A DNA stretch of 64,000 nucleotides from Candidatus Hydrogenedentota bacterium (GTDB lineage: Bacteria; Hydrogenedentota; Hydrogenedentia; Hydrogenedentales; JAEUWI01). This document shows, piece after piece, positions 518-55,258 of this stretch. The notes below the pieces were generated by a model that was not told the origin of the DNA, ran no database searches, and saw nothing but the letters and a program-made list of their open reading frames with translations. Location: contig JAXMOL010000015.1 of assembly GCA_034669905.1 (NCBI GenBank), positions 32,001-96,000 on the forward strand, read 5' to 3'. Both the position numbers and the translations under genes were made by a program. Numbering within the stretch: the stretch's first letter is position 1; each line of letters begins with the position of its first letter.

Positions 518-578
518 TCTCTCTCTATTCAGCATGTCGCCCATTTCATGTGCGTGACACGCCGGATAGACCTATTAT

Positions 579-655
579 GCCTGGGTAGCTCAGTCGGTTA
601 GAGCGCTGGATTGTGGATCCAGAGGTCGACGGTTCGACCCCGTCCTCAGGTACCA
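579..655 (+). tRNA. tRNA-His(GUG), atypical acceptor end
   Basis: Acceptor stem GCCTGGG/CTCAGGT, D arm AGCTCAGTCGGTTAGAGC, anticodon stem CTGGA/TCCAG with GTG at 613-615, T loop GGTTCGA, encoded CCA at 653-655. Confidence 0.96.
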
Positions 656-664
656 TTACACATT

Positions 665-704
665 AAGCGGAAACATCGTCCTATGTCGGTGTTTCCGCTT
701 TTTT
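665..704 (+). terminator. Rho-independent terminator after tRNA-His
   Basis: AAGCGGAAACATCG...CGGTGTTTCCGCTT stem followed by a T tract. Confidence 0.8.
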
Positions 705-940: not shown

Positions 941-2872
941 ATGCACGAAAGCAACACACGACGGACGGCCGTCCGACACGATGTGACGCGGTTGAGCGAG
1001 GACGATATTCACTGGCTGAACGAGGGCAGCCACTTCCGTTTATACGACAAACTTGGCGCCCACCCCATGACCGCGTCCGATGGCACGGAGGGGGTCTACT
1101 TCGCCGTTTTTGCGCCCCATGCCCACGCGGTTTCGGTCTTCGGCAGCTTTAACGACTGGAACAAGGACGCATCCATGTTGCGCCTTCGGGATGATTCGGG
1201 CGTCTGGGAAGGCTTCGTGCCAGACACCGGGCGCGGGGCAACCTACAAGTTCCACATCTGGGGCCAACACGACGGCTTCGAAGCCGACAAGGCCGATCCC
1301 TATGGATTCCGCCACGATGGTGCCCCGTCCAACGCCTCCATCGTCTGGCCATTGGATCACGCATGGGACGATGAGGACTGGATGGCAAACCGCCAGACCC
1401 AGGCCACACAGCCAACCCCCGTGTCGATCTATGAGGTCCATCTGGGCTCGTGGATGCGCGACGAGGACAACGCGTTCCTTAACTACCGCGAGATAGCGGA
1501 TCGCCTTGCCGCCTACACGGTCGAGATGGGCTTCACCCATGTGGAAATCATGCCGGTCACTGAGCATCCTTTCTATGCGTCGTGGGGCTATCAATCCACG
1601 GGCTATTTCGCCCCCACCAGTCGATACGGAACACCCCAGGATTTCATGTACTTCGTCGACTGTATGCACCAGCATGGCATCGGCGTGATTCTGGATTGGG
1701 TCCCCGGACACTTTCCCAGCGATGCCCATGGACTCGGCTACTTCGACGGTACCCACCTCTATGAACATCCCGACCCGCGCCGGGGCATCCACCCCGAATG
1801 GCAGAGTTTCGTCTTTGACTACGAGCGGCCGGAGGTGCAGAGCCTCCTCTTCAGCAACGCGTTTTTCTGGGCCGATAAGTACCACGTGGACGGCTTCCGG
1901 GTAGACGCCGTGTCCTCCATGCTCTACTTGAATTACAGCCGGGAAGACGGCGATTGGATTCCCAATCAGTATGGTGGGCAGGAAAACCTGGAGGCCGTGG
2001 CCTTCTTCCGACGCTTCCACGCCGAACTGGCCACACGCTATCCCGATGTCCGCTCTTTCGCGGAAGAGTCCACGGCGTGGCCCATGGTTTCCCGACCGGG
2101 CTATCTGGGGGGACTGGGTTTTGATTATAAGTGGGACATGGGCTGGATGAACGACACCCTGTCCTACTTTAAGCAGGATCCCATTTACCGAAAATTCTAT
2201 CAGCAGAAACTGACTTTTCGGATGATGTATGCTTTCAGCGAAAACTATGTGCTCCCCTTGTCCCATGATGAAGTCGTTCATGGTAAGGGGTCCTTGCTCG
2301 CACGGATGCCGGGCGACTATGGTCAGAAGTTTGCCAACCTGAAAGTCTTGTTGGGTAACCAGTACCTGCAGCCCGGCAAGAAGATGCTCTTTATGGGCAG
2401 CGAGTTGGCCCAGTGGAATGAGTGGAATCACGACACCTCGCTGGATTGGAACCTGCTCGATTACCCGGCCCACGCGGGCGTCCAACAATGGGTAAAAGAC
2501 CTGAACCGACTCTACCGAAGCGAATCGGCGCTCCATGAGCAGGACAGTTCTCCCGACGGTTTCGAATGGATAGATTGCCTGGACAACGACAACAGCGTCA
2601 TCAGCTTCCTCCGCAAGGGGCGTGATGGACGCACCCTGTTCCTGGCGATCTTCAACCACACCCCCTTGCCGCGGCACGACTACTGCGTGGGCGTTCCCCG
2701 GGGCGGGTTCTGGCAAGAGGTGCTCAACAGCGACGCAACATGTTACGGTGGAGCGGGTTCAGGGAACCTGGGCGGCGTGGAGTCGATGGCGGTGCCCAAT
2801 CACCACCACCCGTGCTCCGTGGCACTTACCTTGCCCCCGTTGAGTTGCGTGGTGTTAAAGTCGATTATGTAA
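941..2872 (+). CDS. glgB: 1,4-alpha-glucan branching enzyme (GH13)
   Basis: IYEVHLGSW, SWGYQ, DWVPGHF, RVDAVSSMLY, AEEST, LSHDEVVHGKGSL motifs; AAAGGA RBS before ATG 941. Confidence 0.96.
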   Translation: MHESNTRRTAVRHDVTRLSEDDIHWLNEGSHFRLYDKLGAHPMTASDGTEGVYFAVFAPHAHAVSVFGSFNDWNKDASMLRLRDDSGVWEGFVPDTGRGATYKFHIWGQHDGFEADKADPYGFRHDGAPSNASIVWPLDHAWDDEDWMANRQTQATQPTPVSIYEVHLGSWMRDEDNAFLNYREIADRLAAYTVEMGFTHVEIMPVTEHPFYASWGYQSTGYFAPTSRYGTPQDFMYFVDCMHQHGIGVILDWVPGHFPSDAHGLGYFDGTHLYEHPDPRRGIHPEWQSFVFDYERPEVQSLLFSNAFFWADKYHVDGFRVDAVSSMLYLNYSREDGDWIPNQYGGQENLEAVAFFRRFHAELATRYPDVRSFAEESTAWPMVSRPGYLGGLGFDYKWDMGWMNDTLSYFKQDPIYRKFYQQKLTFRMMYAFSENYVLPLSHDEVVHGKGSLLARMPGDYGQKFANLKVLLGNQYLQPGKKMLFMGSELAQWNEWNHDTSLDWNLLDYPAHAGVQQWVKDLNRLYRSESALHEQDSSPDGFEWIDCLDNDNSVISFLRKGRDGRTLFLAIFNHTPLPRHDYCVGVPRGGFWQEVLNSDATCYGGAGSGNLGGVESMAVPNHHHPCSVALTLPPLSCVVLKSIM

Positions 2873-2951
2873 ATCGCCCCACCCCGATTCGTTGAAGTGA
2901 ATTCGACGCCCCGCCACGGGCGTTCAGATTAAATGCCGAGGAGTACGATGT

Positions 2952-4916
2952 ATGGCGGATGGCAAACTCACCGGGCGCCTGTCCATGGAAAAGAAAGTGG
3001 CCGCAACCTTGCGCCGCTTGCTACCCCGTCTGGAGGAGCGTTTCAAGCCCCATGTAGAACCGGACGAATGGCAGGGCTTTGAAGAACGTCTGCGGCGAAA
3101 TTTCCCCCAGCTTTTTGAAGGGCTCCATTTTCTCTATGGCGATGCCTACGATTTCTTTTTCCATGTGGAAAGCATCCTCGTTTCCGCGACCCACCTGTGG
3201 CTCGAGCGCCCCAGCGAATTAAAGGCCCTGGATGCCTTGCGGGAATATGACCCCCAGTGGTACCAGTCCAATCGCATGGTGGGTGCCATGTGCTATGTGG
3301 ACCTTTTTTCGGACGACCTCCAGGGGCTCATCGACCAGATCCCCTATTTGACCGAACTCGGGATCACCTACCTCCATCTCATGCCCCTTTTCGAGTCCCC
3401 CGAAGGGGACAACGATGGGGGTTATGCGGTGAGCAGCTATCGATCGGTAAACCCCGAACTCGGCACGATGGAAGATTTACAACGGCTTGCCACGGAACTG
3501 CGTCACCGGGGCATCTCGCTGGTGCTCGATTTTGTCTTCAACCACACCTCCGATGAGCACGAATGGGCCCAGAAAGCCCTCGCAGGTGACGAAGACTACC
3601 AGCATTACTATCTCATGTTCCCCGATCGGACCATGCCCAATGCCTACGAAGCCAGCATTCGCGCCGTATTCCCCGATGAGATCCCCGGGTGTTTCAGTTA
3701 CCGGACCAGTATCAAAAAGTGGGTCTGGACCTCCTTCTACAACTTCCAGTGGGACCTCAATTACGAGAACCCGGAAGTGTTCGTCGGCATGATGGAGTCC
3801 ATGCTCTTCCTCGCCAATCAGGGCGTGGAAGTCTTGCGTCTTGATGCCATCGCCTTTACCCGCAAGGAATTGGGCACCGGCTGTCAGAACCTGCCGGGAG
3901 CCCATGTTATCGTCCAGGCATTCAATGCGCTGAAAAATATTGCGGCACCGGCCATGGCCTTTAAGTCGGAGGCCATTGTCCATCCCGATGAAGTGCGCAA
4001 ATACATCAGCAAAGAAGAGTGTGAGCTCTCCTACAATCCCCAACTCATGTCCCTCTTGTGGGAGGCCCTGGCCACCCAGGACACCCGCGTGCTGCGCCGC
4101 TCCATGGAACGTGGCTTTGCTATCGACCCCAAGGCCTCGTGGGTGAATTACGTGCGGTGTCACGACGATATCGGGTGGGGCTTCGCCGATGAAGACGTGG
4201 CCGCCGTGGGCTTCGACCCCGTTCAGCACCGCCGCTTCCTCTCCGAATTCTACACCGGGAAATTTGCTGGTTCCTTCGCTTCGGGTGAGCCCTTTCAAGA
4301 GGACAAAGAAACCGGCGAAGCGCGTGTCTCTGGCACCTGTGCTTCTCTGGCCGGTCTTGAAAAAGCCATCGCAGAAAACAACGAAGAGGCCATCGAGTGG
4401 GCAATCCGGCGCATCCTCCTGCTCCATGGCGTGGTGATGACCATTGGCGGCATTCCCCTGATTTACCTGGGCGATGAACTGGGTATGCTCAACAACTACA
4501 CCTACAAGGAGTCCCCCGACAAGATGGGAGACTCCCGCTGGCTCCACCGCATGCGCTTCGATTGGGAGGCCTCCGAGCGACGGGGCGACTTCGAAAGCAT
4601 CGAAGGACGAATCTACGGCGGCTTCTCCCGGCTGGTCCAACTACGCCGACAAAACCTGGCCTTCAGCCGCGCCGAAACGGAATTCGTGGAAAGTGGCAAC
4701 GCCCATGTCTTTGCCTATTTCCGCACCCATGAAAGCCTCAGCGTCCTGGTCATGGCCAACTTCAGCAACAAAGAGCAGGCCATTGAAGCCTGGCGCCTCC
4801 GCCAGTTGGGACTCCGAAAGACCATGGTCGACCTGGTCTCCGGAAAGATGGTGGTAGCCGCTCGGGAATTGGTCCTCGAGCCCTATGACTTTTGCATCTG
4901 GGCGCGACCAACCTGA
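2952..4916 (+). CDS. Amylosucrase-like GH13 transglucosidase
   Basis: DGGYAVSSY, VFNHTSDEH, FQWDLNY, RLDAIAF, FKSEAIV, RCHDDIGW, SGTCASLAG, DSRWLHR motifs. Confidence 0.87.
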   Translation: MADGKLTGRLSMEKKVAATLRRLLPRLEERFKPHVEPDEWQGFEERLRRNFPQLFEGLHFLYGDAYDFFFHVESILVSATHLWLERPSELKALDALREYDPQWYQSNRMVGAMCYVDLFSDDLQGLIDQIPYLTELGITYLHLMPLFESPEGDNDGGYAVSSYRSVNPELGTMEDLQRLATELRHRGISLVLDFVFNHTSDEHEWAQKALAGDEDYQHYYLMFPDRTMPNAYEASIRAVFPDEIPGCFSYRTSIKKWVWTSFYNFQWDLNYENPEVFVGMMESMLFLANQGVEVLRLDAIAFTRKELGTGCQNLPGAHVIVQAFNALKNIAAPAMAFKSEAIVHPDEVRKYISKEECELSYNPQLMSLLWEALATQDTRVLRRSMERGFAIDPKASWVNYVRCHDDIGWGFADEDVAAVGFDPVQHRRFLSEFYTGKFAGSFASGEPFQEDKETGEARVSGTCASLAGLEKAIAENNEEAIEWAIRRILLLHGVVMTIGGIPLIYLGDELGMLNNYTYKESPDKMGDSRWLHRMRFDWEASERRGDFESIEGRIYGGFSRLVQLRRQNLAFSRAETEFVESGNAHVFAYFRTHESLSVLVMANFSNKEQAIEAWRLRQLGLRKTMVDLVSGKMVVAARELVLEPYDFCIWARPT

Positions 4917-4993
4917 TATAACGCGAGTGGTTTGATTCAAGATGATGAGTCATCGTTACGGCCACCTGAATTTCCTAAGTTATTGAGGATTAC

Positions 4994-5072
4994 TCCCCTC
5001 CTTGGAGGGGCCGGGGGTGGGTCAATGCCCGAAAGAAGGCCCAACCCACCCCTAATCCCTCCCAGGAGGGGA
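4994..5072. repeat. Intergenic nested palindromic element (family D)
   Basis: TCCCCTCCTTGGAGGGG-CCGGGGGTGGGT...ACCCACCCCTAAT-CCCTCCCAGGAGGGGA inverted arrangement. Confidence 0.7.
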
Positions 5073-5167
5073 ATTCATTTCCAATTTTCCCACAGGCTCA
5101 AGCGAACTTAATCGTTCACAATGCTACTTCACACAACGAGAATAGCGGAGCTGGGACGAAGGGCACT

Positions 5168-7558
5168 ATGAACGCTTGCAGCGCATGGTTAGGAAACCGC
5201 CTCGACACCATTCAGAAAAACCACCAGGTCGGCATGTCCCTGGCACTGACGCTGCTGATCGTGACCAGCGTGTTCGCTTCCGGGACGGAAGGACAACCAC
5301 GGCGGAACCCATCCGTACCGTCGATTGGTGCAAAAAACCTGATTCCGAACAGCAGCTTTGAGCTCGGTACGGACCACTGGTCATCGCTGGGAACGCCGAC
5401 GGTCAGTGGCGGTGACCTCTGTGGCCTGGTTGGCACCCTCGAAGCAGGCAACGCCTACGACGGCGATCACTGTCTCCGAATCGATTTGGGCCCGGGCAAG
5501 ACGCCCGTGACCCACTCGGATTACACGTTGGGCGCTTCCACCACGACGATACAAGCTGCGCCGCGGGCCGCAACCCTCGGTTGGATGGACGTATCCCCCG
5601 GCACAAGCTACACCCTGTCGGCCTGGATGCGCGCCAATCGGGACGATGTGCCCGCCGATCTCGTGTTTCGATTCGGTGGCGAGATCAACAGTCGCTTCGG
5701 AAGTAACACCCACACCGAGCGCGTAACCCTGACCACGAAATGGGCCCGTTATTCCTTTTCCATGAAGGCTGAACACCCCGACGTATACGTAGCCGTTGGG
5801 CCCAACCTCCTCAACACGCCCGACGCATCGGCAACGGTATGGATCGACGCCGTTCAACTGGAAGTAACGCCCGGCTCACCCGATGACGACGAGGTTGTAG
5901 CGACCGACTATGCCCCCCGCGAAGCGGTGGAAATCGGCATAAATAGCGGACACTATGGAAATCTCTTCGACCGCCAGGACCCCACAGGCTTCACCGTCGT
6001 GGGCCTCAACAATACGGCCAACCCTGCCCGCGTCGAATTGCGCGTCGAACTGGAAGACTACTTCGGCGAGCGGGGTGCCATGACGGCCCATGTGTTGGAC
6101 CTGCCTGCGAGGCAGCGCGCCACCACCTTCCTCCCCCTGACGGTGCCGGGCACCGGCTACTATCGCGCCCATCTTTCGTGGTCGGCCAACAGTGTGCTGC
6201 ACACGCGCACGATCAAATTCGCGATAATCGATACCTACCCGTGGGAAGACAGCATCTTTGGCCTCAACCACGCCCCCACCACGAAGGAAGCCTGCGCCCA
6301 ATTGCGCAAAGGCGGAACCCTCTGGGCGCGCGATTGGTCGGCGAAATGGGAATCGGTCGAAGCGACGGAAGGTGCCTATGACTATACGGAACTGGACCGT
6401 CAGGTGGACCGTATCGCCGCCAACGGCATGCTCCCCCAATTCCTCCTACCGCCCCAGCCATCCGCGGCCTGGGCTTCGGAAGCACCCGAAGGGGACCTTC
6501 GCCCCGTGGAGCGCACCGGCTATGCGCCGAAGCCCGCGCACCGCGAACAACTCCACCAGTTTATCGCGGCGACGGTGACCCGCTACCAGGATCGCGTTAC
6601 CTATTGGGAGTTTCTCAACGAGCCCCTCTGGGTGCCGTGGTACTGCCTCCCCGGAAGCGGCGGCTACACGGTGGATACCTATATCGATTTGCTGAAGGGG
6701 GCTTCGGCCGCCATGAAGGCCGCCGACCCCGATTGCAAAGTGCTCGGCGGACTTTCCATCATGGCCCAGAGCGAATTGGGTGATGAGTTTATCGAGAAAG
6801 GCGGGCTGGCCTATGTGGACATCTACAACCTCCACCCCTATCCAGAAGGGACCGGACCCGAATCCTTTATCCCTTCCATGGAACGCATCCAGGCCACGAT
6901 GGCGGCCCACGGCGGCCCGAAACCTATCTGGGCGACGGAATTGAGCTACTGGGCGACCGATGACAAACCCTGGTCTCCCTGGACGCCACCCAACACGTCC
7001 CATTGGTCCGCGAATCGCCAACAGGCGAGTGAACGGGAAGCCGCGGACTTCAATATCCGCCAGTCCGTCATCCTGTTGGCCCATGGCGTAGAGAAAATCT
7101 TCTGGCACTCCGGTCTTGAGGGGGAAGTCAACGTAGGCAGTATGGATCTGGAAAATCCCCTGCTCGATCCCGAGGCCGTGCCTCAGAAGTTCTTCGCAGC
7201 CCAGGCAGCCCTGGTCAACTTGCTCGGCCCGGCACCGACTTTCGTCGCGCCACTCCAGAAGCCCGATGCCGTGGAGAATCATAAGACAGACAAGGTCCAC
7301 GGCTATGCCTTCGAGGGCCCCAAGGGCGCCGTCCTGATTGCCTGGTCACCCGGCGTCCTCAACACGGGCAAACCGGGTGCGGGTGGCGTGATCCACCTCG
7401 GCGAATCGCCTGTCTACTTCACGTCCACTATCCTGACGGCGAAAGCCCTTGCAAGCGCCGGAACCCTGGCCTACAGCAACGCCTTCAACGGCTGGACTAT
7501 CACCATGCCCGAGGATGTGGACGCCTTCACCCTGGTAGGGACACCGTTGGGACGATGA
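5168..7558 (+). CDS. Secreted carbohydrate-binding module plus clan GH-A-like glycoside hydrolase
   Basis: Signal peptide; NLIPNSSFE...VWIDAVQLE CBM4/9-like domain; WEFLNEP acid/base, NLHPY, IWATE nucleophile; start may be 5234. Confidence 0.72.
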   Translation: MNACSAWLGNRLDTIQKNHQVGMSLALTLLIVTSVFASGTEGQPRRNPSVPSIGAKNLIPNSSFELGTDHWSSLGTPTVSGGDLCGLVGTLEAGNAYDGDHCLRIDLGPGKTPVTHSDYTLGASTTTIQAAPRAATLGWMDVSPGTSYTLSAWMRANRDDVPADLVFRFGGEINSRFGSNTHTERVTLTTKWARYSFSMKAEHPDVYVAVGPNLLNTPDASATVWIDAVQLEVTPGSPDDDEVVATDYAPREAVEIGINSGHYGNLFDRQDPTGFTVVGLNNTANPARVELRVELEDYFGERGAMTAHVLDLPARQRATTFLPLTVPGTGYYRAHLSWSANSVLHTRTIKFAIIDTYPWEDSIFGLNHAPTTKEACAQLRKGGTLWARDWSAKWESVEATEGAYDYTELDRQVDRIAANGMLPQFLLPPQPSAAWASEAPEGDLRPVERTGYAPKPAHREQLHQFIAATVTRYQDRVTYWEFLNEPLWVPWYCLPGSGGYTVDTYIDLLKGASAAMKAADPDCKVLGGLSIMAQSELGDEFIEKGGLAYVDIYNLHPYPEGTGPESFIPSMERIQATMAAHGGPKPIWATELSYWATDDKPWSPWTPPNTSHWSANRQQASEREAADFNIRQSVILLAHGVEKIFWHSGLEGEVNVGSMDLENPLLDPEAVPQKFFAAQAALVNLLGPAPTFVAPLQKPDAVENHKTDKVHGYAFEGPKGAVLIAWSPGVLNTGKPGAGGVIHLGESPVYFTSTILTAKALASAGTLAYSNAFNGWTITMPEDVDAFTLVGTPLGR

Positions 7559-7663
7559 CGGGCCCCACCGGGTCACCATTGAAAAGTGAAGAGAAATCCC
7601 GTCACACTGTGGGGGTATTTGTAGTTACCTTTTCAAGGCGAGCCTTAACGCCGCCGAACCCCG

Positions 7664-9322
7664 ATGGATTCTCCCGTGTATTTTCATCCCCGTTTCTCCG
7701 CGACACCTTCCCGCCCGCTCCAGGGCACCCTTTCGGCAATTGCGCTCCTGCTCCTCCTTCCCCTGTGTGCAACGGCTGACACCAAGTACCCCCAGGCCAA
7801 CCCGGCCCTGGCGGACTTCCGCATCCTGCCCTATTTACAGGCGCCTTCCAGCACGGGAATGCACATCAACTGGTTCACCACCGCCGCCGAGTCGGGCACG
7901 CTGGTGGTCAAAGACGGCGCCTCGGGCACCACGGTGCGCACCCTGCGGAGCACACCGGAAGATCTCTCGGAGGCCCGTTATTCGGCGTTGGAAGAATCGG
8001 AACGCAGTGACTTCCCCGACATGTTCGACAATGCCAGTGTGAAGCACGCCATCCAGGTGAAAGGCCTCACGGCCGATACCGCCTATGCCTATGAAGTCAC
8101 CCAGGGAAACAGTACCTTTCGCGGCACCTTCAAGACGGCCCCCTTGCCCGACACGCGGCGTCCTTTACGGCTCATCGCCTTTGCCGATTCTGAGACCGAC
8201 CCCGACGGGCGACACACCTACCGCAACTGGGAGCCGGCCAAACAACACACGGACAGCACGGGCCGTCCGCAAGAAATCACCAAGTATCTGGTAACCGAAA
8301 CCCGGGGCTTCATTGAAAACATCAGGGTTATCGAATCACGCAAACCGGACCTGGTGCTCATGGCGGGCGACCTCGTCCAGGGCGGCGGCTACCAACGGGC
8401 GTGGGATGAATTTTTCTTCCACCTCGCGGGCAAATTTGACGACCTCATGACCCACACGCCCCTCCTCATGGCCCTGGGCAATTGGGAAACCTTTGGCGCG
8501 CGGAACGGCGAGTATGCCCCTGAAGCCATCCACAAGAGCCGTCGCAAATCCCTCGCCTACATCGATGGGCCGCCCAACAACAACCCGAACTATAAAGATG
8601 CCTACTATCGCGTGGACTACGGCCCCGTCACCGTCCTGACCCTGGATTCCTGTAATGGCCTGCCCGACGATACGGACTTTGACACCAACATCAACATCGA
8701 CGCGGCCACCTACCCGGGCGACGATATGCCCGACATGAACCAGGGATCCGATCAGTGGAACTGGTGCATGGCCCAACTGGAAGACGCCCGGGAACGGGGC
8801 CAGATCATCTTTGTCCAGTTTCACCACGTGCCCTACTCCAGCGGCGGACATATCCTGCCCGTCTCCATGGAAAACAGCAGTGGTCAGGCCGGCCTCCCCA
8901 TGCGGATCTATACCCCGGCCTTCCAACGCTACGGCGTGGTGGCTGTGCTCTGCGGACACAACGAAACCTTCGAGCGCTCGCTGGTGGGCGACGTGATATT
9001 TTATGATGCCGGGGTCGCCGGCGACGGACTTGGGGCACCGGAGAGTGAAAAAGATCCCCGTTGCGCCAACCCCTGGCAGGCCTGGATTGCCCACGACGAT
9101 GACCCGGAATTGTGGAACGGCAAGCAGCTTGTAGACGGCGGACGCCACTATGGCCACGTGGAAATCGACATCACCCCCGACGACACGGGCTGGAACGTAT
9201 CCCTGACGCCTGTGTATATCTTTCCCGTCAATGATGAGGAAGGCAACGTAACCGGCTTTGAGCGACGGGTCTACGATGATGTGGTGACCCTCCATACGAA
9301 CCGCGAAGGGCGTAAGAAGTAG
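7664..9322 (+). CDS. Secreted purple-acid-phosphatase-like metallophosphoesterase
   Basis: Signal peptide, FN3-like N-domain, FADS, AGDLV, LGNWE, FHHVPY, CGHNE motifs. Confidence 0.82.
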   Translation: MDSPVYFHPRFSATPSRPLQGTLSAIALLLLLPLCATADTKYPQANPALADFRILPYLQAPSSTGMHINWFTTAAESGTLVVKDGASGTTVRTLRSTPEDLSEARYSALEESERSDFPDMFDNASVKHAIQVKGLTADTAYAYEVTQGNSTFRGTFKTAPLPDTRRPLRLIAFADSETDPDGRHTYRNWEPAKQHTDSTGRPQEITKYLVTETRGFIENIRVIESRKPDLVLMAGDLVQGGGYQRAWDEFFFHLAGKFDDLMTHTPLLMALGNWETFGARNGEYAPEAIHKSRRKSLAYIDGPPNNNPNYKDAYYRVDYGPVTVLTLDSCNGLPDDTDFDTNINIDAATYPGDDMPDMNQGSDQWNWCMAQLEDARERGQIIFVQFHHVPYSSGGHILPVSMENSSGQAGLPMRIYTPAFQRYGVVAVLCGHNETFERSLVGDVIFYDAGVAGDGLGAPESEKDPRCANPWQAWIAHDDDPELWNGKQLVDGGRHYGHVEIDITPDDTGWNVSLTPVYIFPVNDEEGNVTGFERRVYDDVVTLHTNREGRKK

Positions 9323-19406: not shown

Positions 19407-19928
19407 ATGTTGTGCCAAAAATGCCATAAAAGACCGGGTACCATTCGCTATGCCGAAGTGGTCGATGGACGGGTTACGGACCAATTCTGGTGTTCCGAGT
19501 GTCTCGCCAACCAACGCTCAGGACAGGAAGGCTTCGAAATATCGGAAGTTTCCCCCACCCGGCCCAATCGCGACTCGATCCATAGCGTGGTCAGCCGGGT
19601 TGTACGTGCCCAACGGGCCTGCCCGGAGTGCGATACCCAGTTACAGACGGTTTTCGCCACGGATCGGGTGGGCTGTGCCGCGTGCTATGCCACCTTTAAG
19701 GATGAACTGGGCGATCTGCTGAGTAAGCTCCATGGCCGTGTGGCCCATCGGGGCAAAGCAGCACACTTGACCGATGCCCGGACTCAGTTGCGCTCGGATC
19801 TCCGGTCGAAACGGGCCTTGCTGCGCAGTATGCTCAAGGCAGAGAACTACGAAGAAGCGGCCACCCTGCGGGACGAAATTCGCTCTTTGGAGGCTGGTCT
19901 CTATATGTCTGAATCAGGAGCGGATTAA
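19407..19928 (+). CDS. mcsA: McsA (four CxxC plus UVR domain)
   Basis: CQKC, CSEC, CPEC, CAAC; ENYEEAATLRDEI; adjacent to mcsB-clpC. Confidence 0.9.
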   Translation: MLCQKCHKRPGTIRYAEVVDGRVTDQFWCSECLANQRSGQEGFEISEVSPTRPNRDSIHSVVSRVVRAQRACPECDTQLQTVFATDRVGCAACYATFKDELGDLLSKLHGRVAHRGKAAHLTDARTQLRSDLRSKRALLRSMLKAENYEEAATLRDEIRSLEAGLYMSESGAD

Positions 19929-19932
19929 CGCC

Positions 19933-21093
19933 ATGCACATTGCTCCCATCCTTCGACACGACCCCACGTGGCAGCAGGCGGCGGCAGATGCCCACAGTGA
20001 TCTCGTCATTCTCAGTGATTGCAATCTGGGCCGGAACCTTACGGATTTCCCCTTTCCCCATTGCTGCACCGAAGATGAGTTGCTGGCCATTGAATCCCGG
20101 GTTTTACGGGTACTCGATCAGCTGAACCTCCTTGCCAGCGGCCACTATTTCAAGCTGGTCGACCTCGATCGTGCCGAAGTACAGCTCCTCGCCGAGCGGC
20201 AGCTGATATCCCCCGCGATGACAACGCCCCGGCCTGGTCAGGGCGTCTATGTATCCCAGGATCAGAGCCTCAGTATCCTCGTAAACGACGAAGACCACTG
20301 CTGCATCCGCGTGCTCGCCTCCGGCCTCCAGTTGGAAGACGCGTGGGCCCGCGCCAGTCTGATGGACGACACCCTGGGCGGGGTATTGGACTATTCCTTC
20401 TCGGATCAATTTGGATTCTTGACCCAGAATCTGGCCCACCTGGGCACAGGATTGCGGTGTACCGTGTTACTCCACCTTCCTGGATGCGCCCAGCGGAGCG
20501 AACTGGCCGAACTACGTGAAATGGCCGAAGAAAGCGATCTCGTCTTTCGCGGCATCGGCATTGGACCGCCCTCGGGGGACACCGAACGCCCCGAATCCAA
20601 TCCCCTCTTCCCCCAGGCCCTTTATAGCAGCATGGACGGGTTTACCTCCCGCATGCCCTATGATTCCGAAGGGGACCTTTTCCAGCTGAGCAACCGCAGC
20701 ACCCTGGGCCAGACCGAAGAAGAGCTGCTCTTTCAGGTCAAGCAGTGTGCCAACCGTTTTATCGCGCGGGAAGAAGCGATCCGGAAGCAGATGCATGAGG
20801 AAGAGTCAGAGGTCCTCTTTGACCGTATCGAGCGGGCCCGGGCCCTGGCCCTGCGTGCCCACCTGGTGCCCTTCAGCGAGAGCATGGCGCTCTTGTCGTC
20901 ACTCCGCCTCGGCGTTTCCCTGGGCCTGATATCCGACATCCCCCTTTCGGCCCTGAATGGCTCCCTCATTGGATGCCAGGATGCCCACGTGGAAAGCCGT
21001 CGTGACGACAGCGAGGGCCCTGTGGATGAGCTGGATTTAAAGCGATTTCGGGCCGCATTGTTGAAATCTCAATTCGAATCACCCAAAAACTAG
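19933..21093 (+). CDS. mcsB: McsB-family protein arginine kinase homolog (divergent active site)
   Basis: LVNDEDH, LGTGLR, LHLP, FQLSNRSTLG, LSSLRLG; synteny. Confidence 0.85.
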   Translation: MHIAPILRHDPTWQQAAADAHSDLVILSDCNLGRNLTDFPFPHCCTEDELLAIESRVLRVLDQLNLLASGHYFKLVDLDRAEVQLLAERQLISPAMTTPRPGQGVYVSQDQSLSILVNDEDHCCIRVLASGLQLEDAWARASLMDDTLGGVLDYSFSDQFGFLTQNLAHLGTGLRCTVLLHLPGCAQRSELAELREMAEESDLVFRGIGIGPPSGDTERPESNPLFPQALYSSMDGFTSRMPYDSEGDLFQLSNRSTLGQTEEELLFQVKQCANRFIAREEAIRKQMHEEESEVLFDRIERARALALRAHLVPFSESMALLSSLRLGVSLGLISDIPLSALNGSLIGCQDAHVESRRDDSEGPVDELDLKRFRAALLKSQFESPKN

Positions 21094-21257: not shown

Positions 21258-23720
21258 ATGTGGGAACGATTTACGGAACGCGCCAAGCATGTAGTCAGCG
21301 CCGCACGTGAAGAGGCCACCCGCCTGGGTAGCGAATACGTGCGGACAGAACATATCCTGCTCGGACTGTGCCGCGAACCCGAGGGGATTGCGGCTCGGGC
21401 CCTGGAAAATCTCGGGGTCGATATCGAGGCATTGGCCATAGAGATTGAGCAGCAGGTCCAGCCCGGATCGGCCGCCGTTTCCGGTGAAGAGATTGCCTTT
21501 ACACCCCGGGCCAAGAAAGTGCTGGAGTTGGCCGTGGAAGAAGCCCGACGCTTCAGCCACAGCTATATCGGCACGGAGCACATCCTCCTCGGCCTCCTGA
21601 AAGAGGGCGAAGGCATCGCGGCGAAAGTATTGCAGGATATGAAGATCGACCTCGGCCGAATCCAGGCGGAAGTCATCCGTCTCCTCGGTGACCAGGGGCG
21701 ACCCAGTGCCGAACAGGCCCAGACCGGCAAGAAATCACAGACGCCAGCCCTCGACAATTTCGGGCGGGATCTGACCCAATTGGCCCGTGATGAGAAGCTG
21801 GACCCCGTCATCGGGCGCGAAGGCGAAATCGAGCGCCTGATTCAGGTCTTGAGCCGCCGCACCAAGAATAACCCCGTCCTCATTGGTGAAGCCGGTGTGG
21901 GCAAGACCGCCATCGTGGAAGGCCTCGCCCAGGCCATCATCAACGGCGACGTGCCCGATCTGCTGCTGAAGAAGCGGGTCTTGACCCTCGACCTCGCGGG
22001 CGTGGTGGCTGGCACGAAATACCGCGGCCAGTTCGAAGAACGGCTCAAATCTGTCATGAAAGAGATTCGTCGGGCCGACAATGTCATTTTGTTCATTGAC
22101 GAGCTCCACACCATCGTGGGTGCCGGCGCGGCGGAAGGGGCGGTCGACGCCGCCAATATGCTGAAACCCGCCCTGGCCCGCGGTGAGCTCCAATGCATTG
22201 GCGCCACCACGATGGACGAATACCGCAAATACATCGAAAAAGACGCGGCCCTGGCCCGCCGTTTCCAGACCATCATCGTGGATGCCCCCTCTGTTGCCCA
22301 GACCATTGAAATTATCAAGGGCCTGCGCGACAAGTATGAGGCCCACCACCGGGTCAAGTTCTCGGATGAATCCGTTATCGCCGCAGCCAAGCTGTCGAAT
22401 CAATACATTGCCGACCGCTATCTTCCGGACAAAGCGGTGGACGTCATTGACGAAGCCGGCAGCCGGGCCCGCCTCCAGATCACCACGCGCCCCCTCGAAC
22501 TGAAGCAGATCGAGCAGGATATTGAGCAGGTGACCCAGGAGAAAGAGTCGGCGATTCGCCGCCAGGAATATGAAAAGGCCGCCAGCCTGCGTGATAAGGA
22601 ACGTACCCTGATCAACAAGCTGGAAGAGAAGAAGCGCGACTGGGAAATGAAGCGCGACTCGGCAGAAACCATCATCAATGAAGAGGATATCGCCTACATC
22701 GTCTCCAAGTGGACCGGCGTGCCCCTGACCAAGCTGGAAGAGAAAGAGTCGGAACGCCTGTTGCGCATGCGCGATGAGTTGCACCGCTCTGTTATCGGCC
22801 AGCATGAAGCCATCGACTCCATCACCCGGGCGATTCAACGCTCCCGGGCCGGTTTCCGGGACCATGCCCGACCGGTAGGCTCCTTCCTCTTCCTCGGCCC
22901 CACCGGTGTGGGTAAGACGTTATTGGCAAAATCCCTGGCTTCGTTCCTCTTCGGCAACGAAGACGCCCTGATCACCGTCGATATGTCTGAATATATGGAA
23001 CGCTTTGCTGTTTCCCGTCTGACCGGGGCACCTCCCGGCTATGTGGGCTACAACGAAGGCGGCCAGCTCACCGAGCAGGTTCGTCGTCGCCCCTATTCGG
23101 TGGTGCTTTTCGACGAAATTGAGAAGGCCCACCCGGATATCTTTAACGCGCTCCTCCAGGTGCTGGAAGAAGGTCAGATGACCGACGCCAGCGGCCGGAA
23201 GGTCGATTTCCGCAATACGGTCATCATCATGACCAGCAACGTGGGCGCCCGCCGAATCGGCAAGGGCGGCGGCACCCTGGGCTTCCAGGTAGACGACGTA
23301 GAGTCCATGTACAACCGGATGAAAGAGCGGGTGGTGGATGAAGCCAAGAAGGTTTTCAATCCTGAATTCATGAACCGCCTTGATGACACGCTGGTCTTCC
23401 ACCGCCTGACCGACGAACAGCTCATTGACATCGTCGATATCCAGGTAAAGGACATGGTAGATCGCGTGGCCGAAAAGGATGTACACTTGCACCTCGATCG
23501 CGCTGCAAAAGAATTCCTCGTGCGCTTGGGAAGCAACGAAGAATATGGTGCCCGTCCGCTCCGGCGTGCGGTACAGCAGTACATCGAGGACCCCCTCGCA
23601 GAGCTGTTGTTGCGGGGTAACCTGGAACCTGGAACCAAGATTGAAGTCTGGCCCTCTGACACCGAGGAAAAACTCGTGTTTGAGCCGACTGCATTAGCCG
23701 CGGAAGGTGTAACTTCTTGA
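21258..23720 (+). CDS. clpC: ATP-dependent Clp protease ATPase ClpC
   Basis: Double Clp-N domain, [11 protein letters not shown] middle domain, [11 protein letters not shown] loop. Confidence 0.97.
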
Positions 23721-26871: not shown

Positions 26872-27903
26872 ATGAAGATGACAGTCGGCGAGATCGCGGC
26901 CATGGTGGGCGGCACGGTAGTCGGCGACCCGACGGTCGTTATTACCGGCGTCAACGGGGTGGATGAGGCCCAGGCGGGGGAACTCTGTTTCATACGCAGC
27001 ACCACCTACCTCCCCCAATTGGCCCAATCGGGCGCATCAGCCGCGCTGATTCAGCAGGAGCCTGAGGGAATCGACATGGCCATGATTCTGGTGCCACAGC
27101 CAGACCTGGCCTTTGCGATGGTGCTGAAGCACTGTGAACACTCCCAGCGCAAACACCCCGTGGGTATTCATGAGCGGGCCGTGGTTGATCCCGATGCCGC
27201 TCTCGGAAACAACGTCGCCATCGGCGCCTGTGCCGTTATTGAAGCGGGCGCGTCACTGGGCGACGGCGTGGTCCTTTACCCCGGCGTTTACGTAGGCCGT
27301 GATGTGCATATCGGGGCGGAAACTATCGTCTATCCCAATGTCACCATCCGCGAGGAAACGACCGTTGGTGCCCACTGCATCCTCCATGCCGGGGCAACGA
27401 TTGGCAGCGACGGGTTTGGCTACGCCCACCTGGATGGTGCCTGGATGAAGATCCCTCAGGTTGGACGGGTTGTGTTAGAGGATGACGTGGAAATTGGCTC
27501 CGGAACCGCCATTGACCGCGCCACCTTCGGCGTGACGCGTATTGGCCGAGGTACGAAAATTGACAATCTGGTTCAAGTTGGACACAATGTTCAAATAGGA
27601 GAACACTGTGCGCTGGCCGGTATGGTTGGTATCGCCGGCAGTGCCACGCTGAAGGATGGCGTCCGTGTGGGTGCCTCGGCGGGTGTCGCTGGCCATCTCA
27701 CCGTTGGTGCGGGAGCCACGGTGGCCGCCCGGGGCGGTGTGGTGAAATCGGTTGCTCCCGGTGCCGTGGTATCGGGATTTCCGGCCATGGACCATGCGGA
27801 AGAACGCCGCGTGCTCGTTGCGCAGCGCAGGGTTCCCGAGCTTATCCGTCGTGTAAAAATGCTCGAACGGGCGCTCGAAGCAGTGAAAGAACAGCTTACA
27901 TGA
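26872..27903 (+). CDS. lpxD: UDP-3-O-acylglucosamine N-acyltransferase
   Basis: Hexapeptide repeats, GSDGFGY, KIPQVG, TKIDNLVQVGHN; AAGGAG RBS. Confidence 0.95.
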   Translation: MKMTVGEIAAMVGGTVVGDPTVVITGVNGVDEAQAGELCFIRSTTYLPQLAQSGASAALIQQEPEGIDMAMILVPQPDLAFAMVLKHCEHSQRKHPVGIHERAVVDPDAALGNNVAIGACAVIEAGASLGDGVVLYPGVYVGRDVHIGAETIVYPNVTIREETTVGAHCILHAGATIGSDGFGYAHLDGAWMKIPQVGRVVLEDDVEIGSGTAIDRATFGVTRIGRGTKIDNLVQVGHNVQIGEHCALAGMVGIAGSATLKDGVRVGASAGVAGHLTVGAGATVAARGGVVKSVAPGAVVSGFPAMDHAEERRVLVAQRRVPELIRRVKMLERALEAVKEQLT

Positions 27904-29231
27904 GCAAACAAAAGACGATTAAAGAGCCGGCCTCGTTTTCCGGGATCGGCCTCCATACCGGTAGCCTGACCACGGTAACCTTCAAACCCGCGCCGGAAAA
28001 CTCCGGAATCACCTTTTACCGGGTCGATCTGGAAGGTAAACCGGCCATCCCTGCCGACGTAGACAACGTGGTTGGTGTGGCACGGGGCACGACCCTGGGT
28101 ATCGGCGATGCCAAAGTCCACACGGTGGAGCACGCCCTGTCCGCCATGGCCGGACTTGGTATTGATAACCTGGCCATTGAGCTTGATGCCGAGGAAATTC
28201 CTTCGGGCGATGGCAGCTCCATGCCCGTCATGACCACGCTGCTGAAGGCCGGCGTGGTCGAGCAAGAGGCGGAGAAGCAATACATCACGGTGGATCGGCC
28301 GGTCTACTACCGCCAGGGTGATGTCACCCTGAGTATCCTCCCGTCGGATGAACACCGCGTCTCCATGACCATTGCCTATGACCACGTGGCGATCGGCACC
28401 CAATACGCCTCGTTTATCATCACGGAAGAAACCTTTAAGAAGGAAATCGCCCCCGCACGGACCTTCTGCTTCCTGCGCGAAGTAAAGATGCTCCAGGAAA
28501 AGGGGCTTATCAAGGGAGGCAGTCTGGAGAGTGCCGTGGTAATTGGGGATGACACCATCCTCAATGATGACCTCCGCTTCCCCGATGAATTTGTGCGCCA
28601 CAAGATTCTCGACCTGATCGGGGACATGTATCTGCTCGGGCGCCCTATCAAGGGCCATATCGTCAGCGTAAAGAGCGGGCACGAGAAGAACGTGCTCTTT
28701 TCCAAGCAGATCAAAGCAGCCCTTGCCAACGGCCAGGAGTCTCGTGGACGGGACGATTTGGCGACAACCAGCCAGATTGCCCGGCCACCGGCCCTTGACG
28801 TAAGCAAGATCATGAAAATTCTCCCCCACCGCTACCCGTTCTTGCTGGTGGACCGGATCCTGTCTTTTGTGCCCATGGAACGGGTAACCGGCATTAAGAA
28901 CGTCACGGTCAATGAGCCTTTCTTTCAGGGACACTGGCCCGAGACCCCGGTCATGCCCGGCGTGATGATTGTAGAAGCGATGGCACAGGTAAGCGCGGTG
29001 CTCATCTTTGGCGACAACCGGGATCCCGACGGCAAGCTGGCCTTCTTCCTGGGAGTCGACAAGGCACGCTTTCGTCGCACGGTGGTCCCCGGCGATCAGT
29101 TGGTCATTGAGGTAGAGATGATTCGTCGGCGAAAGAATGCCTGCAAAGTGGCGGCCAAGGCGCTGGTGGACGGCGTAGTCGCTGCAGAAGCCATAATGAC
29201 CTTCGGCCTCATGGCAATGGATGAGCTCTAA
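27900..29231 (+). CDS. lpxC: Bifunctional LpxC/FabZ
   Basis: GIGLHTG, TVEH, ARTF, RHKILD (LpxC); LPHRYPFLLVD, NEPFFQGHWP (FabZ). Confidence 0.96.
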   Translation: MSKQKTIKEPASFSGIGLHTGSLTTVTFKPAPENSGITFYRVDLEGKPAIPADVDNVVGVARGTTLGIGDAKVHTVEHALSAMAGLGIDNLAIELDAEEIPSGDGSSMPVMTTLLKAGVVEQEAEKQYITVDRPVYYRQGDVTLSILPSDEHRVSMTIAYDHVAIGTQYASFIITEETFKKEIAPARTFCFLREVKMLQEKGLIKGGSLESAVVIGDDTILNDDLRFPDEFVRHKILDLIGDMYLLGRPIKGHIVSVKSGHEKNVLFSKQIKAALANGQESRGRDDLATTSQIARPPALDVSKIMKILPHRYPFLLVDRILSFVPMERVTGIKNVTVNEPFFQGHWPETPVMPGVMIVEAMAQVSAVLIFGDNRDPDGKLAFFLGVDKARFRRTVVPGDQLVIEVEMIRRRKNACKVAAKALVDGVVAAEAIMTFGLMAMDEL

Positions 29232-51314: not shown

Positions 51315-54290
51315 TCAGTTGGAAATCCAGACGGCGCCGTAGGGTGGGATTTCGATGGTGGCCTCGATATCCTTGTACACGGTGCCGCTGAGCAGGTCAC
51401 GCCACGTGTCGGTCGCAATGAGGTTAAGCTCCACCATGGGGATTTTTTGCACCCGGTCCGACACGTTGTGGAGGGCAAAAATGTTTTGATGCCGGGAACG
51501 GCTCTCCCGCCAGAAGGCAAAGACTTCGGTGCCGAAGTGAAGGGTGTATTGGGTCGCATTGGGGTGGAAGGCTTCCTGATTGCGCCGAATATTGATACGC
51601 CGCTTGAGTTCGTCCAGCACCGCACGGTGGTGACGGGTGGGATCCGCCAAGGCTTCTTCCAGGTCTTCGGCCTGCCAACGACGCCGATTGATGGAGCGGG
51701 CACGCCCGGTCTCGGCCGCAAGTGCATAGTCATTTTCTGTGCCGAGCAGGCTGTGTATGTAGATGCCGGGCACGCCCTCCAGGGCCAGCAGTATGGTGTG
51801 GGCACAAATAAATCGGTCCTGCTGAAACGCATCAGGTCCCTGTGAAATCGTGCCCTTCAAGGCATCGTAGAGGGAGATGTTCACCTCGTAGGGCTTGTCT
51901 TCCCCATCGGGCATGCGGCGGGTTGAGACCGTACCGCCAAAGGATTGCAGGGTCTCCAGCAGGGAGGACAACTGGGTGTCACTGAGGAGCCCCTCAGCGG
52001 GCCGCACCCCAATGCCATCATGGGACGCGATAAAATTGAAATAGGTTCGGCCCTGCCGTGCCGGGGGCATGGACATCATCCAGGTCTTCAGGTGGGTGCA
52101 GTCCCCCGTCAGAAAAGCGTTCAGCAGCAGCGGCGGCAAGGAAAAATTATAGATCAGGTGGGCTTCATTTTCGTTGCCGAAGTAGCTCAGGTTTTCCCGA
52201 TTGGGCACGTTGGTTTCGGTGATGATCACCGTCTCGGGCTCGAGGTTTTCGAGTATGAGCCGCAGCAGCTTGATGAGCTCATGGGTCTGGCGCAGATGGA
52301 CACAGGTCGTGCCGGACTCTTTCCAGATGAAGGCGACCGCATCCAAGCGGAAAAGCCGGATACCCCGTCGCAAGTGCTTCCGCAGCACCCGCACCATCTC
52401 ATAGAGCACTTCCGGATTCGAGTAGTTCAGGTCGACCTGATCCTCGCCGAAAGTACACCACACCTCCCGCTCGCCATTGACCGTTTTCACCTTGGTGAGC
52501 AAGGGCGTCGAGCGCGGACGCACCACCTGGGTCAAATCGTCGTCTGGCCCGGGCTCGATAAAATAGCCCCGCCCGGGGTCTTTGTCTTGGAGGTAGTTTT
52601 GAAACCATAGGCTCTGTCGAGAACAGTGGTTCAAGACCAGATCGGACATGAGCTTGAAGTCGTTACCAATACGCTCGATGTCTTCCCAGCTGCCCAGGTC
52701 GGGATTCACGGCGTGGTAGTCGATGATAGAAAAGCCGTCGTCCGAGCTATAGGGAAAGAAGGGAAGGACGTGCACGCCACTGAGGGTGTCTTTCAACTCG
52801 CGCCGTAAGAACCGGTGCAGGGTCTTGAGGGGTGCCTCTCCCTCTTTGAGCAACGTATCACCGTAGGTAATGGTCAACACATCCGTCTGATTCCACTTAT
52901 TCACCCCTCCCGTAGAGCTGGTGGCGTAGCCCTGAATCTCGGACTCTTTCAACAGGGTATCGGTAACGGTCTCGACCTGATCCGGGCCGTAGATTTCTTC
53001 CACATGGCGCTCGACCCGCTGGCGAAGCCGTTGGGCGTCGGGGTGGCGCGTGGGATCGGCCACATTGGTGGAACCGAACTCCTGGGCATCGGCCTCCACC
53101 GCACGGACCAACTGTTGGTAAATATCTGGCATTGCCGAGATAACCCGCTTCCAACTCGGCATGAAGGGCGCCTCCATGGACTTCGTCAAAAAGTCCTGGC
53201 CGGCCTCCATAATGTTTTGGGAGAAGAGCTCGATGGCCTGAATCTCACTGTGCCGATCGTAGCGCAGCCCATTGAAAACCGCGTCATTCTCATAGCTCTC
53301 CACCAGGTCGATGGCAATGCGGTAGTAAGACGCCTTGATCGTCCGAATACGTTCGGCGGAAAACACTTCGCCCTGGGTAGCCATCTTCCGGAAGAGCGAC
53401 TTGGCAATATCGCTGCTCATGCGGGACAGGCCTTTGGCCTTGTCTTCCAGCGACAAATCCTGGTGCTTGTGGTCATAGGTGTCGGCCACATCGACCTGAC
53501 AAATCTGGCTGGTGGCATAGTTACGGTACATCTCGGAAAGGATGCCCATTTCCAGGCCCCAGTCGGACGGGATGTGAATATCTTCAATGACGTCGCGCTG
53601 CAGGGCAAATTCACCGGCCAGGGCATAGCGAAAGCTGTCGAGGTAATCGAGGTAACGGTTTTGTCCGCACACCGTACCCAGGGCCCGCACGAGGGGCGTG
53701 ACCAGGAGGCGACAGACCCGCCCATGCATGGACTGATTGGCGATGCGCGAGTAGTAGCCCTTACAGAACTTATAGCTGAAACGGGGATTGGCCACCGGGT
53801 AAATCAGCCGGGCGAGCATGTCGCGCTTATAGGTCACAATATCGCAGTCATGGAGCGCAACGGACTTGGCCTTGCCGGTGGCTAGGATGTAGCCAAACAT
53901 GTACCACACATTACGACCCTTGCCCGGCTCTTTGGGCGCGAGCCCGTGGGATTGGAGCAGTGCATCGATGGCGCGGAGGCGGGGGCCGTCATTCCACAAG
54001 ACCGTGGGACGCTGGGGCAAGCGATTGAAGAATTCGAGGGCATGTCGGAACTGACTCTCGTCGGCGCGGTCGAGTCCGATGACGAGCTGGTCGAGGTAGG
54101 ACACTTTGCACAATTCATCGACAATGGACGAAAGCGCGGGCCCCTCCAACTCGGAGTAGAGCGACGGTAAGATAAGCGCCATGGGGTCGGTCTTTCGAAT
54201 CTCGAGGAGTTCCGTCTCCAGATCTTCGAGGGACCGGGTGTTCAGCTGGTGCAGTGCGGTGACGATACCGTGTTGATGAAAATCCGCCAT
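51315..54290 (-). CDS. Fusion of a glucosyl-3-phosphoglycerate synthase-like GT and a GH13_18 glucosylglycerate phosphorylase-like domain
   Basis: N-half MADFHQ, PGKGRNVW, HDCDI, YALAGEF, DWGLE, YDHKHQ; C-half ITYGD, SSDDGF, RLDAV, TETN, SHDGIG, PYEVN. Confidence 0.88.
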   Translation of the reverse strand: MADFHQHGIVTALHQLNTRSLEDLETELLEIRKTDPMALILPSLYSELEGPALSSIVDELCKVSYLDQLVIGLDRADESQFRHALEFFNRLPQRPTVLWNDGPRLRAIDALLQSHGLAPKEPGKGRNVWYMFGYILATGKAKSVALHDCDIVTYKRDMLARLIYPVANPRFSYKFCKGYYSRIANQSMHGRVCRLLVTPLVRALGTVCGQNRYLDYLDSFRYALAGEFALQRDVIEDIHIPSDWGLEMGILSEMYRNYATSQICQVDVADTYDHKHQDLSLEDKAKGLSRMSSDIAKSLFRKMATQGEVFSAERIRTIKASYYRIAIDLVESYENDAVFNGLRYDRHSEIQAIELFSQNIMEAGQDFLTKSMEAPFMPSWKRVISAMPDIYQQLVRAVEADAQEFGSTNVADPTRHPDAQRLRQRVERHVEEIYGPDQVETVTDTLLKESEIQGYATSSTGGVNKWNQTDVLTITYGDTLLKEGEAPLKTLHRFLRRELKDTLSGVHVLPFFPYSSDDGFSIIDYHAVNPDLGSWEDIERIGNDFKLMSDLVLNHCSRQSLWFQNYLQDKDPGRGYFIEPGPDDDLTQVVRPRSTPLLTKVKTVNGEREVWCTFGEDQVDLNYSNPEVLYEMVRVLRKHLRRGIRLFRLDAVAFIWKESGTTCVHLRQTHELIKLLRLILENLEPETVIITETNVPNRENLSYFGNENEAHLIYNFSLPPLLLNAFLTGDCTHLKTWMMSMPPARQGRTYFNFIASHDGIGVRPAEGLLSDTQLSSLLETLQSFGGTVSTRRMPDGEDKPYEVNISLYDALKGTISQGPDAFQQDRFICAHTILLALEGVPGIYIHSLLGTENDYALAAETGRARSINRRRWQAEDLEEALADPTRHHRAVLDELKRRINIRRNQEAFHPNATQYTLHFGTEVFAFWRESRSRHQNIFALHNVSDRVQKIPMVELNLIATDTWRDLLSGTVYKDIEATIEIPPYGAVWISN

Positions 54291-54302
54291 GGTGATAGGT
54301 TC

Positions 54303-55169: not shown

Positions 55170-55258
55170 CGGCACTATTGTAGCCGACCGGGCCGGGTGA
55201 AGGGTAACTCGTGGCGGGTAACGGGGTGGTATGCAGTCTGCCCCCCCGCATGCACCAC

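Follow-up and report, generated by a model that had tools for sequence, protein, structure and literature searches.

In the canonical histidine system of bacteria, as in E. coli and Thermus thermophilus, tRNA-His carries a G-1:C73 pair, and a 2026 paper gives C73 for bacteria in its available text (PMC13433404). The described exception is a pair found in the RRCH clade of Alphaproteobacteria and in most SAR11; two reviews, from 2019 and 2023, name only Alphaproteobacteria among bacteria in their accessible parts (PMC6471195, PMC9976931). How does an enzyme find a tRNA-His without G-1? Accessible excerpts of the Caulobacter work report that anticodon changes cost 91-1000-fold, U72C 91-fold and A73C 3-fold, that an added G-1 gives no help and is 5-fold worse, and that an insert in the anticodon-binding domain has been proposed as the anticodon reader (PMC3064791). 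On the side of the histidyl-tRNA synthetase (HisRS), again from partial texts, the Gly-Gly that leaves space for G-1 in T. thermophilus is replaced by two aspartates in Caulobacter (PMC4357726), and Gly in place of the motif-2 Gln is diagnostic of the RRCH clade (PMC3937112). Here, a tRNA-His gene lacking G-1 is described from a genome of Hydrogenedentota, in a window of 64,000 nt, by which we mean the whole stretch of DNA that was analysed.

The tRNA-His gene and its host

ARAGORN calls a single tRNA gene in the window, tRNA-His(GUG). Its features, its neighbours and the gene of its partner enzyme are the following.

579..655, plus strand: tRNA-His(GUG) gene of the G-1-less type, with CCA encoded at 653-655 (sequence reading, ARAGORN)
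578, plus strand: position -1, a T and not a G, able to pair with A73 in the precursor (sequence)
579..585, plus strand: 5' strand of the acceptor stem, beginning G1, C2, C3 (sequence)
592..600, plus strand: nine-base D-loop with U20a at 599 (sequence)
613..615, plus strand: anticodon GUG (ARAGORN), probably the main identity element by analogy with the Caulobacter data
645..652, plus strand: 3' strand of the acceptor stem, with U72 at 651 and the discriminator A73 at 652 (sequence)
665..704, plus strand: terminator-like hairpin of 14 pairs and a T run (consensus match only)
Minus strand: trxB-like gene on one side of the tRNA gene (reading by eye)
941-2872: glgB on the other side of the tRNA gene
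G000:C14:113963-115447, minus strand: hisS, the sole HisRS gene of the host genome, unlinked to the tRNA-His gene

The acceptor pairs are G579:T651, C580:G650 and C581:G649. The first-pass annotation had read a tRNA-His with T578 in place of G-1, G579:T651 and A652, and all of this is confirmed from the sequence, the gene proper being 579-655. Both tRNA-Glu and the elongator tRNA-Met of the host genome also have G1:U72/A73, so U72 and A73 alone cannot mark histidine. Two terminator-type consensus matches were found against 0.7 +/- 1.1 in shuffles, and the terminator-like hairpin after the gene suggests a stand-alone transcript between the trxB-like gene and glgB; no sigma-70-like promoter passed the scan. 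The glycogen/alpha-glucan genes of the window (941-9322 and 51315-55175), with alpha-amylase-family proteins at 2952-4916 and 51315-54290, are ordinary.

Is this gene the working tRNA-His of its host? The gene is the sole copy among the genome's ARAGORN calls (43 tRNA calls end in CCA), and a type-neutral tRNA-His pattern has one match in the genome; no second, canonical tRNA-His was found genome-wide, and the window copy is the only one. One could imagine that this copy is accessory, or stems from contamination or misassembly, and that the real tRNA-His is absent from an assembly (7.44 Mb) that is 95.7% complete and whose tRNA calls miss tRNA-Ile(GAT) and tRNA-Ala(TGC). This has next to no probability: the genes upstream of the tRNA gene are syntenic in two relatives (G069 and G061), two single-contig relatives (G034 and G068) each have one tRNA-His of the G-1-less type and one hisS, and contigs of another study, covering 300-625 and 598-1000, carry the same bases at 578, 651 and 652 and differ from the window only at 455, 457, 459, 771, 783 and 968. 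Base-call error at those three positions, a concern raised with the original reading, is ruled out by this agreement and by the phylum at large, where U72/A73 is present in 111 of the 122 genomes that yielded a tRNA-His. Elsewhere in the genome, a tRNA-Thr(CGT) (G000:C7:178430-178505) has the only C73 among the 43 host tRNA genes; in E. coli this base identifies tRNA-His.

The annotation had also argued against an alphaproteobacterial host from the context genes, of which three are confirmed: a McsB-type ATP:guanido phosphotransferase (19774-21093), ClpC (21258-23720) and a fused LpxC-FabZ (27900-29231), the last preceded by a hexapeptide-repeat gene. The argument holds. Organism names are attached to 26 RpoB relatives: 23 of these belong to Hydrogenedentota and the other three are a 'bacterium', a Nocardiopsis and a Trueperaceae, with no alphaproteobacterium among the 26. 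Of 12 genome loci that encode a close relative of the host HisRS, eight bear the title Hydrogenedentota.

The partner HisRS

A tRNA-His of this kind had been taken to predict either a divergent HisRS or a Thg1-like enzyme that adds G-1. The first of these is what the genome holds. In the alignment, the motif-2 loop of the host HisRS reads K133-P134-G135 where canonical enzymes have R-P-Q. The segment S89-P-E-E-D93 aligns with D-D-D of Sinorhizobium and with D-R-K-G-R of G001, a phylum genome of another order, and places the acidic P90-E91-E92 at the Gly-Gly site of T. thermophilus. Two inserts are present, recognised by the description in the discussion of PMC3064791, as far as available, and not by Wang 2007's original definitions. 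In a structure model (mean pLDDT 92.7), the GxxDxSGD insert forms a beta-hairpin (227-237); the other, about 15 residues long and located in the anticodon-binding domain, forms two helices (453-472). Both align with those of four alphaproteobacterial HisRSs, and two of these four records show a tRNA-His with U-1, G1:U72 and A73. Among records of a plasmid collection the best 18 HisRS matches are all alphaproteobacterial, at 35-41% identity. PDB searches returned no solved structure of an insert-type HisRS (best 30% identity), the closest solved structures being the Nostoc, human and Elizabethkingia enzymes.

The Thg1 part of the prediction found no support. No Thg1 (PF04446) was found in the host genome, in a search that detected the positive control in Methanosarcina, and Thg1-family genes occur in one of the 135 phylum genomes (one of the 86 high-quality ones), the only one being L187 (G062:C399:61285-61650) in the congener G062. 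Could G-1 still be added opposite A73 after transcription, by Thg1 or an unrecognised enzyme, and be read by HisRS as usual? Eukaryotes have A73 as their discriminator, the host HisRS is of the eukaryote-like branch and has the human enzyme among its closest solved structures, and one congener does have a Thg1-family gene. Such an addition is nevertheless very improbable, considering how rare the gene is, that the G-1 pocket and motif 2 show the changes known from Caulobacter, and that two genomes of the order, G096 and G098, whose HisRS is likewise of the eukaryote-like branch, encode both G-1 and C73. The tRNA-His of G062 has G at -1 with A73, as have those of three congeners without a Thg1 gene. 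The RNase P RNA of the host genome is present and of ordinary type A.

Co-variation of tRNA and enzyme across the phylum

The phylum set comprises 135 genomes, 133 of the host's order (Hydrogenedentales) and two, G001 and G002, of other orders. A pattern that leaves the acceptor stem unspecified matched a tRNA-His in 122 of them; the paired count covers the 120 genomes with both tRNA-His and HisRS, leaving out the 13 without a tRNA-His match, five without HisRS in either search (G035, G079, G090, G116 and G127), three duplicate fragments and one chance match (G098:C613). Tested in this way, tRNA and enzyme go together. A non-C73 tRNA-His and a HisRS 51-100% identical to the host's, some of them partial, occur in 116 of the 120, and the remaining four (G001, G002, G096 and G098) have G-1, G1:C72 and C73 with an R-P-Q HisRS lacking both inserts. 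Motifs could be read in 56 enzymes: 52 have the hairpin insert and no motif-2 Gln (49 KPG, two KPA, one RPG), and the other four have RPQ and no insert. Since the 120 genomes are kin, the co-variation amounts to about two independent changes and not 120. A second hisS did not turn up in any phylum genome in the family search, the two matches in G040 being halves on two contigs, and all 86 high-quality genomes have one each.

By tRNA type, the 122 genomes divide into 111 with U72/A73, six with C72/A73 (G009-G013 and G026), one with U72/G73 (G111, one 76% complete genome) and four with C72/C73; U72/A73 is thus not obligatory across the order. The HisRSs of G009, G010, G011 and G026 form one clade. 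The acceptor end of the C72/A73 genomes (G1:C72, C2:G71, C3:G70, A73) is like that of the host genome's tRNA-Leu and tRNA-Phe. C2:G71 and C3:G70 are kept in all 115 non-C73 genes with a readable 5' side. The nine-base D-loop also occurs in three of the four canonical genes and so does not separate the tRNA-His types in the phylum.

What stands at -1 in these genes? Among the same 115 it is T in 80, G in 24 and C in 11, never A, and in the four C73 genes it is always G. The prevalence of T and the absence of A, with the U578:A652 pair in the folded precursor, would suit a mature tRNA that keeps its -1 base through a shifted RNase P cut (U-1:A73 here, G-1 in some relatives), HisRS accepting both. 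We consider this quite improbable, because T-1/A73 is found in 13 of the 43 host tRNA genes and is hence ordinary, and because G or C, which are unable to pair with A73, occupy -1 in 35 of the 115 relatives.

A return to G-1 and C73

The four canonical genomes include two that are not where one would expect them. On the RpoB tree (34 genomes) G096 and G098 lie inside genus g46, with G094 and G095 (SH-aLRT 100), and their next neighbours are G097 (100) and G105 (97.7), all of them G-1-less. In a 33-row HisRS tree the enzyme of G096 and G098 forms a group with that of an Embleya record (100/100), and an AU test rejects its derivation from the enzyme of the order (p 0.0001). In both genomes no more than about 100 bases separate hisS from the G-1/C73 tRNA gene. 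The genes flanking this unit match those of congeners at 63-73%, so the contigs look native. As judged from these comparisons, the event is a reversal, in which a foreign G-1/C73 tRNA and its hisS have together replaced the G-1-less pair. No empty insertion site was seen in G094, G095 and G097, where the flanking genes are on different contigs and no tRNA gene lies beside either of them.

Movement within the order may also have occurred. The HisRSs of G094, G095, G082 and G086 (L142, L143, L132 and L135) group together, although the RpoB tree sets the two genus pairs apart from each other; each of these genomes has its tRNA-His directly upstream of hisS. The grouping makes a transfer of the G-1-less unit between G094/G095 and G082/G086 possible.

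A proposed mechanism

The window gene is very probably the working, sole histidine tRNA of a G-1-independent pair that functions like that of Caulobacter, from which the mechanism is inferred; the pair itself is known here from the sequences of its tRNA and its HisRS. With no G-1:C73 pair, RNase P would cut at +1 and leave a mature tRNA-His without a -1 base, to which nothing would add a G. The G-1 pocket of HisRS would be closed by the acidic P90-E91-E92, and the enzyme would select its tRNA by the GUG anticodon and U72/A73, with A73 minor, anticodon reading being helped by the helical insert of about 15 residues. In the ancestor of the order the pair would have displaced the canonical one, probably arriving as a linked tRNA-hisS unit, and would have been inherited since, apart from the two genomes where a G-1/C73 pair has replaced it again.

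The anticodon is favoured as the main mark because tRNA-Glu and tRNA-Met of the host share G1:U72/A73 and the acceptor end of the six C72/A73 relatives resembles that of host tRNA-Leu and tRNA-Phe. For the alphaproteobacterium Consotaella, however, the accessible part of one study describes a HisRS that went by G1:U72/A73 in charging engineered tRNAs, even when their pseudo-anticodons had been changed (PMC7590224); there the acceptor end outweighed the anticodon, which makes the weight of the anticodon uncertain. Counting against the mechanism as a whole are the 24 of 115 non-C73 genes with G at -1, the mere 35-41% identity between the host HisRS and the alphaproteobacterial enzymes, and the separation of tRNA-His and hisS in the host, the tRNA gene lying directly upstream of hisS in only 19 of the 116 G-1-less genomes by hand count.

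Range and origin of the pair

Insert-type HisRSs are not confined to these two groups. Sequence clusters of such enzymes carry the names Planctomycetota, Ca. Uabimicrobium, Phycisphaerales, Ca. Lernaella and Zixibacteria, carriers known here from their enzymes alone. Of 80 metagenome loci, 44 have the hairpin insert. All 11 tRNA-His genes recovered from metagenomes stand beside an insert-type HisRS and have G1:U72/A73; ten lack G at -1 and nine are directly upstream of hisS. The 36 loci without the hairpin insert include no tRNA-His, and hence the metagenome loci give no negative control. Three of the metagenome enzymes are named or cluster as Acidobacteriota, Thermoanaerobaculia and FCB group, and three others fall among alphaproteobacterial sequences.

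Where, then, did the Hydrogenedentales pair come from? The HisRS tree relied on is the one of 33 rows, calculated with the diagnostic columns removed under LG+G4, without a mixture model. In it 21 insert-type enzymes fall on the same side of a moderately supported branch (86/78), the Hydrogenedentales HisRSs form a clade of their own (100/100), and the four alphaproteobacterial enzymes are nested in a group that also holds the clusters named Lernaella, Phycisphaerales and Uabimicrobium (100/99). An exclusive clade of Hydrogenedentales and Alphaproteobacteria is rejected (AU p 0.002, with four named alphaproteobacterial sequences and LG+G4). In a tree with a very distant outgroup (Proteus, G001 and G002) the root branch has a length of 2.0 and the insert-type group is broken up. 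Transfer out of the sampled Alphaproteobacteria does not fit as a source, as the host HisRS is not nested among theirs and the exclusive clade is rejected; for a eukaryotic donor, the accessible part of one paper gives no support (PMC5370408).

The first-pass annotation had left the choice between an independent and a horizontally acquired loss of G-1. Under the former, tRNA and enzyme of Hydrogenedentales would have converged on the alphaproteobacterial state, a question of origin and not of mechanism, and both the rejection of the exclusive clade and the 86/78 for the insert-type clade can be read in its favour. It is improbable all the same: both inserts occur at corresponding positions with sequences that can be aligned, and together with U72 and A73 they are common to these and the alphaproteobacterial or other enzymes and their tRNAs, which makes parallel gain improbable, and the two pocket changes are also shared with the alphaproteobacterial enzyme. 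The horizontal half of the proposal fares better, in that a shared, laterally spread tRNA-HisRS pair would fit these sequences better.

A broader scenario, to which we give an even chance, is that the G-1-less pair is an older bacterial tRNA-hisS unit that moves whole into and out of genomes. Alphaproteobacteria would be late recipients, the donor lineage lying close to the enzymes that carry the names Ca. Lernaella, Phycisphaerales and Ca. Uabimicrobium, and in Hydrogenedentales the unit would have become fixed order-wide, though reversibly, as in G096 and G098. The C72/A73 lineage (G009-G013 and G026) would have given up U72 as well, leaving histidine identity to the anticodon nearly alone.

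Other unusual tRNA genes

Two further tRNA genes of the host deserve mention. A tRNA-Leu (G000:C12:39345-39431) has the anticodon AAG, and no GAG gene is called in the genome. A tRNA-Leu pattern, which matched 47 of the 135 genomes only, gave 45 matches in the host's order: 43 are tRNA-like with AAG, one is GAG (G084) and one is not a tRNA; G001 and G002 have GAG. The AAG anticodon is probably read as inosine-34. Such reading is described for Lactobacillales in a paper whose available text mentions Mycoplasma and Prochlorococcus and does not name Hydrogenedentota (PMC13249217).

The other is a tRNA-Asn (G000:C45:422-497, minus strand) whose first pair is A1:U72. Its U72 occurs in all four genomes of genus g1, and the other 42 of the 46 genomes with a match have A72. 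Both host tRNA-Gln genes likewise begin A1:U72. GatB and GlnRS are present in the host genome, and no AsnRS scored over the cut-off there. Bacterial GatCAB needs U1:A72, so that genus g1 may have a changed amidotransferase rule.

Comparison with known systems

The system is already known; what would be new to a specialist is that it is fixed order-wide, that it has been reversed, and that the alphaproteobacterial enzyme lies nested among others. A literature search of open article texts found no report of a G-1-less pair outside Alphaproteobacteria; subscription journals and supplements lay outside it, and the supplements of Wang 2007 and of Ardell and Andersson 2006 may list carriers. The reversal to G-1/C73 was not found in print. 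A homologous pair in an order of another phylum, with the alphaproteobacterial enzymes nested, weakens the pair's use as a marker, and range and nesting bear on the source of the alphaproteobacterial HisRS. Congeners with opposite identity rules (G094, G095 and G097 versus G096 and G098) make the switching of a near-universal tRNA identity rule testable, as do the natural C72 and G73 variants, and the Hydrogenedentales enzymes are candidates for orthogonal histidine pairs in genetic code expansion.

With the canonical G-1:C73 system (E. coli, T. thermophilus 4RDX), which G001 and G002 keep, the host shares the anticodon, the class IIa fold and an RNA-based RNase P, but it lacks G-1, C72 and C73, and its enzyme lacks R-P-Q and the Gly-Gly pocket. 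With the eukaryotic G-1:A73 system that uses Thg1 it shares A73 and a HisRS of the eukaryote-like branch, going by the available parts of two reviews (PMC9976931, PMC6471195). The G-1-independent protist enzymes (Trypanosoma, Acanthamoeba) are likened here by partial review descriptions. On the side of differences, no Thg1 was found in the host, and G1:U72 with the two inserts is the bacterial G-1-less signature.

The closest match is the pair of the RRCH clade and most SAR11, as described for Caulobacter crescentus in the texts available (PMC3064791, PMC3937112, PMC4357726). The two have in common the absence of an encoded G-1, G1:U72, A73, the nine-base D-loop, the motif-2 Gly for Gln, acidic residues for the Gly-Gly pocket, the inserts including one in the anticodon-binding domain, and no Thg1 found. 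They differ in that the host belongs to Hydrogenedentota, that its HisRS is 35-41% identical and sits in its own clade (100/100) outside the alphaproteobacterial one, that the pocket has Pro-Glu in place of Asp-Asp, and that a further insert before the GGRYD motif, common to the alphaproteobacterial, P0130, P0151 and P0139 enzymes, is missing; six Hydrogenedentales genomes with C72/A73 and a reversal to G-1/C73 inside one genus are further differences. By its RpoB and HisRS relatives the host is outside Rhizobiales, Rhodobacterales, Caulobacterales and Hyphomonadaceae, and its HisRS is neither nested in nor sole sister to the alphaproteobacterial enzymes. The host pair is thus of the Caulobacter type by every sequence feature tested, yet it stands outside the RRCH clade.
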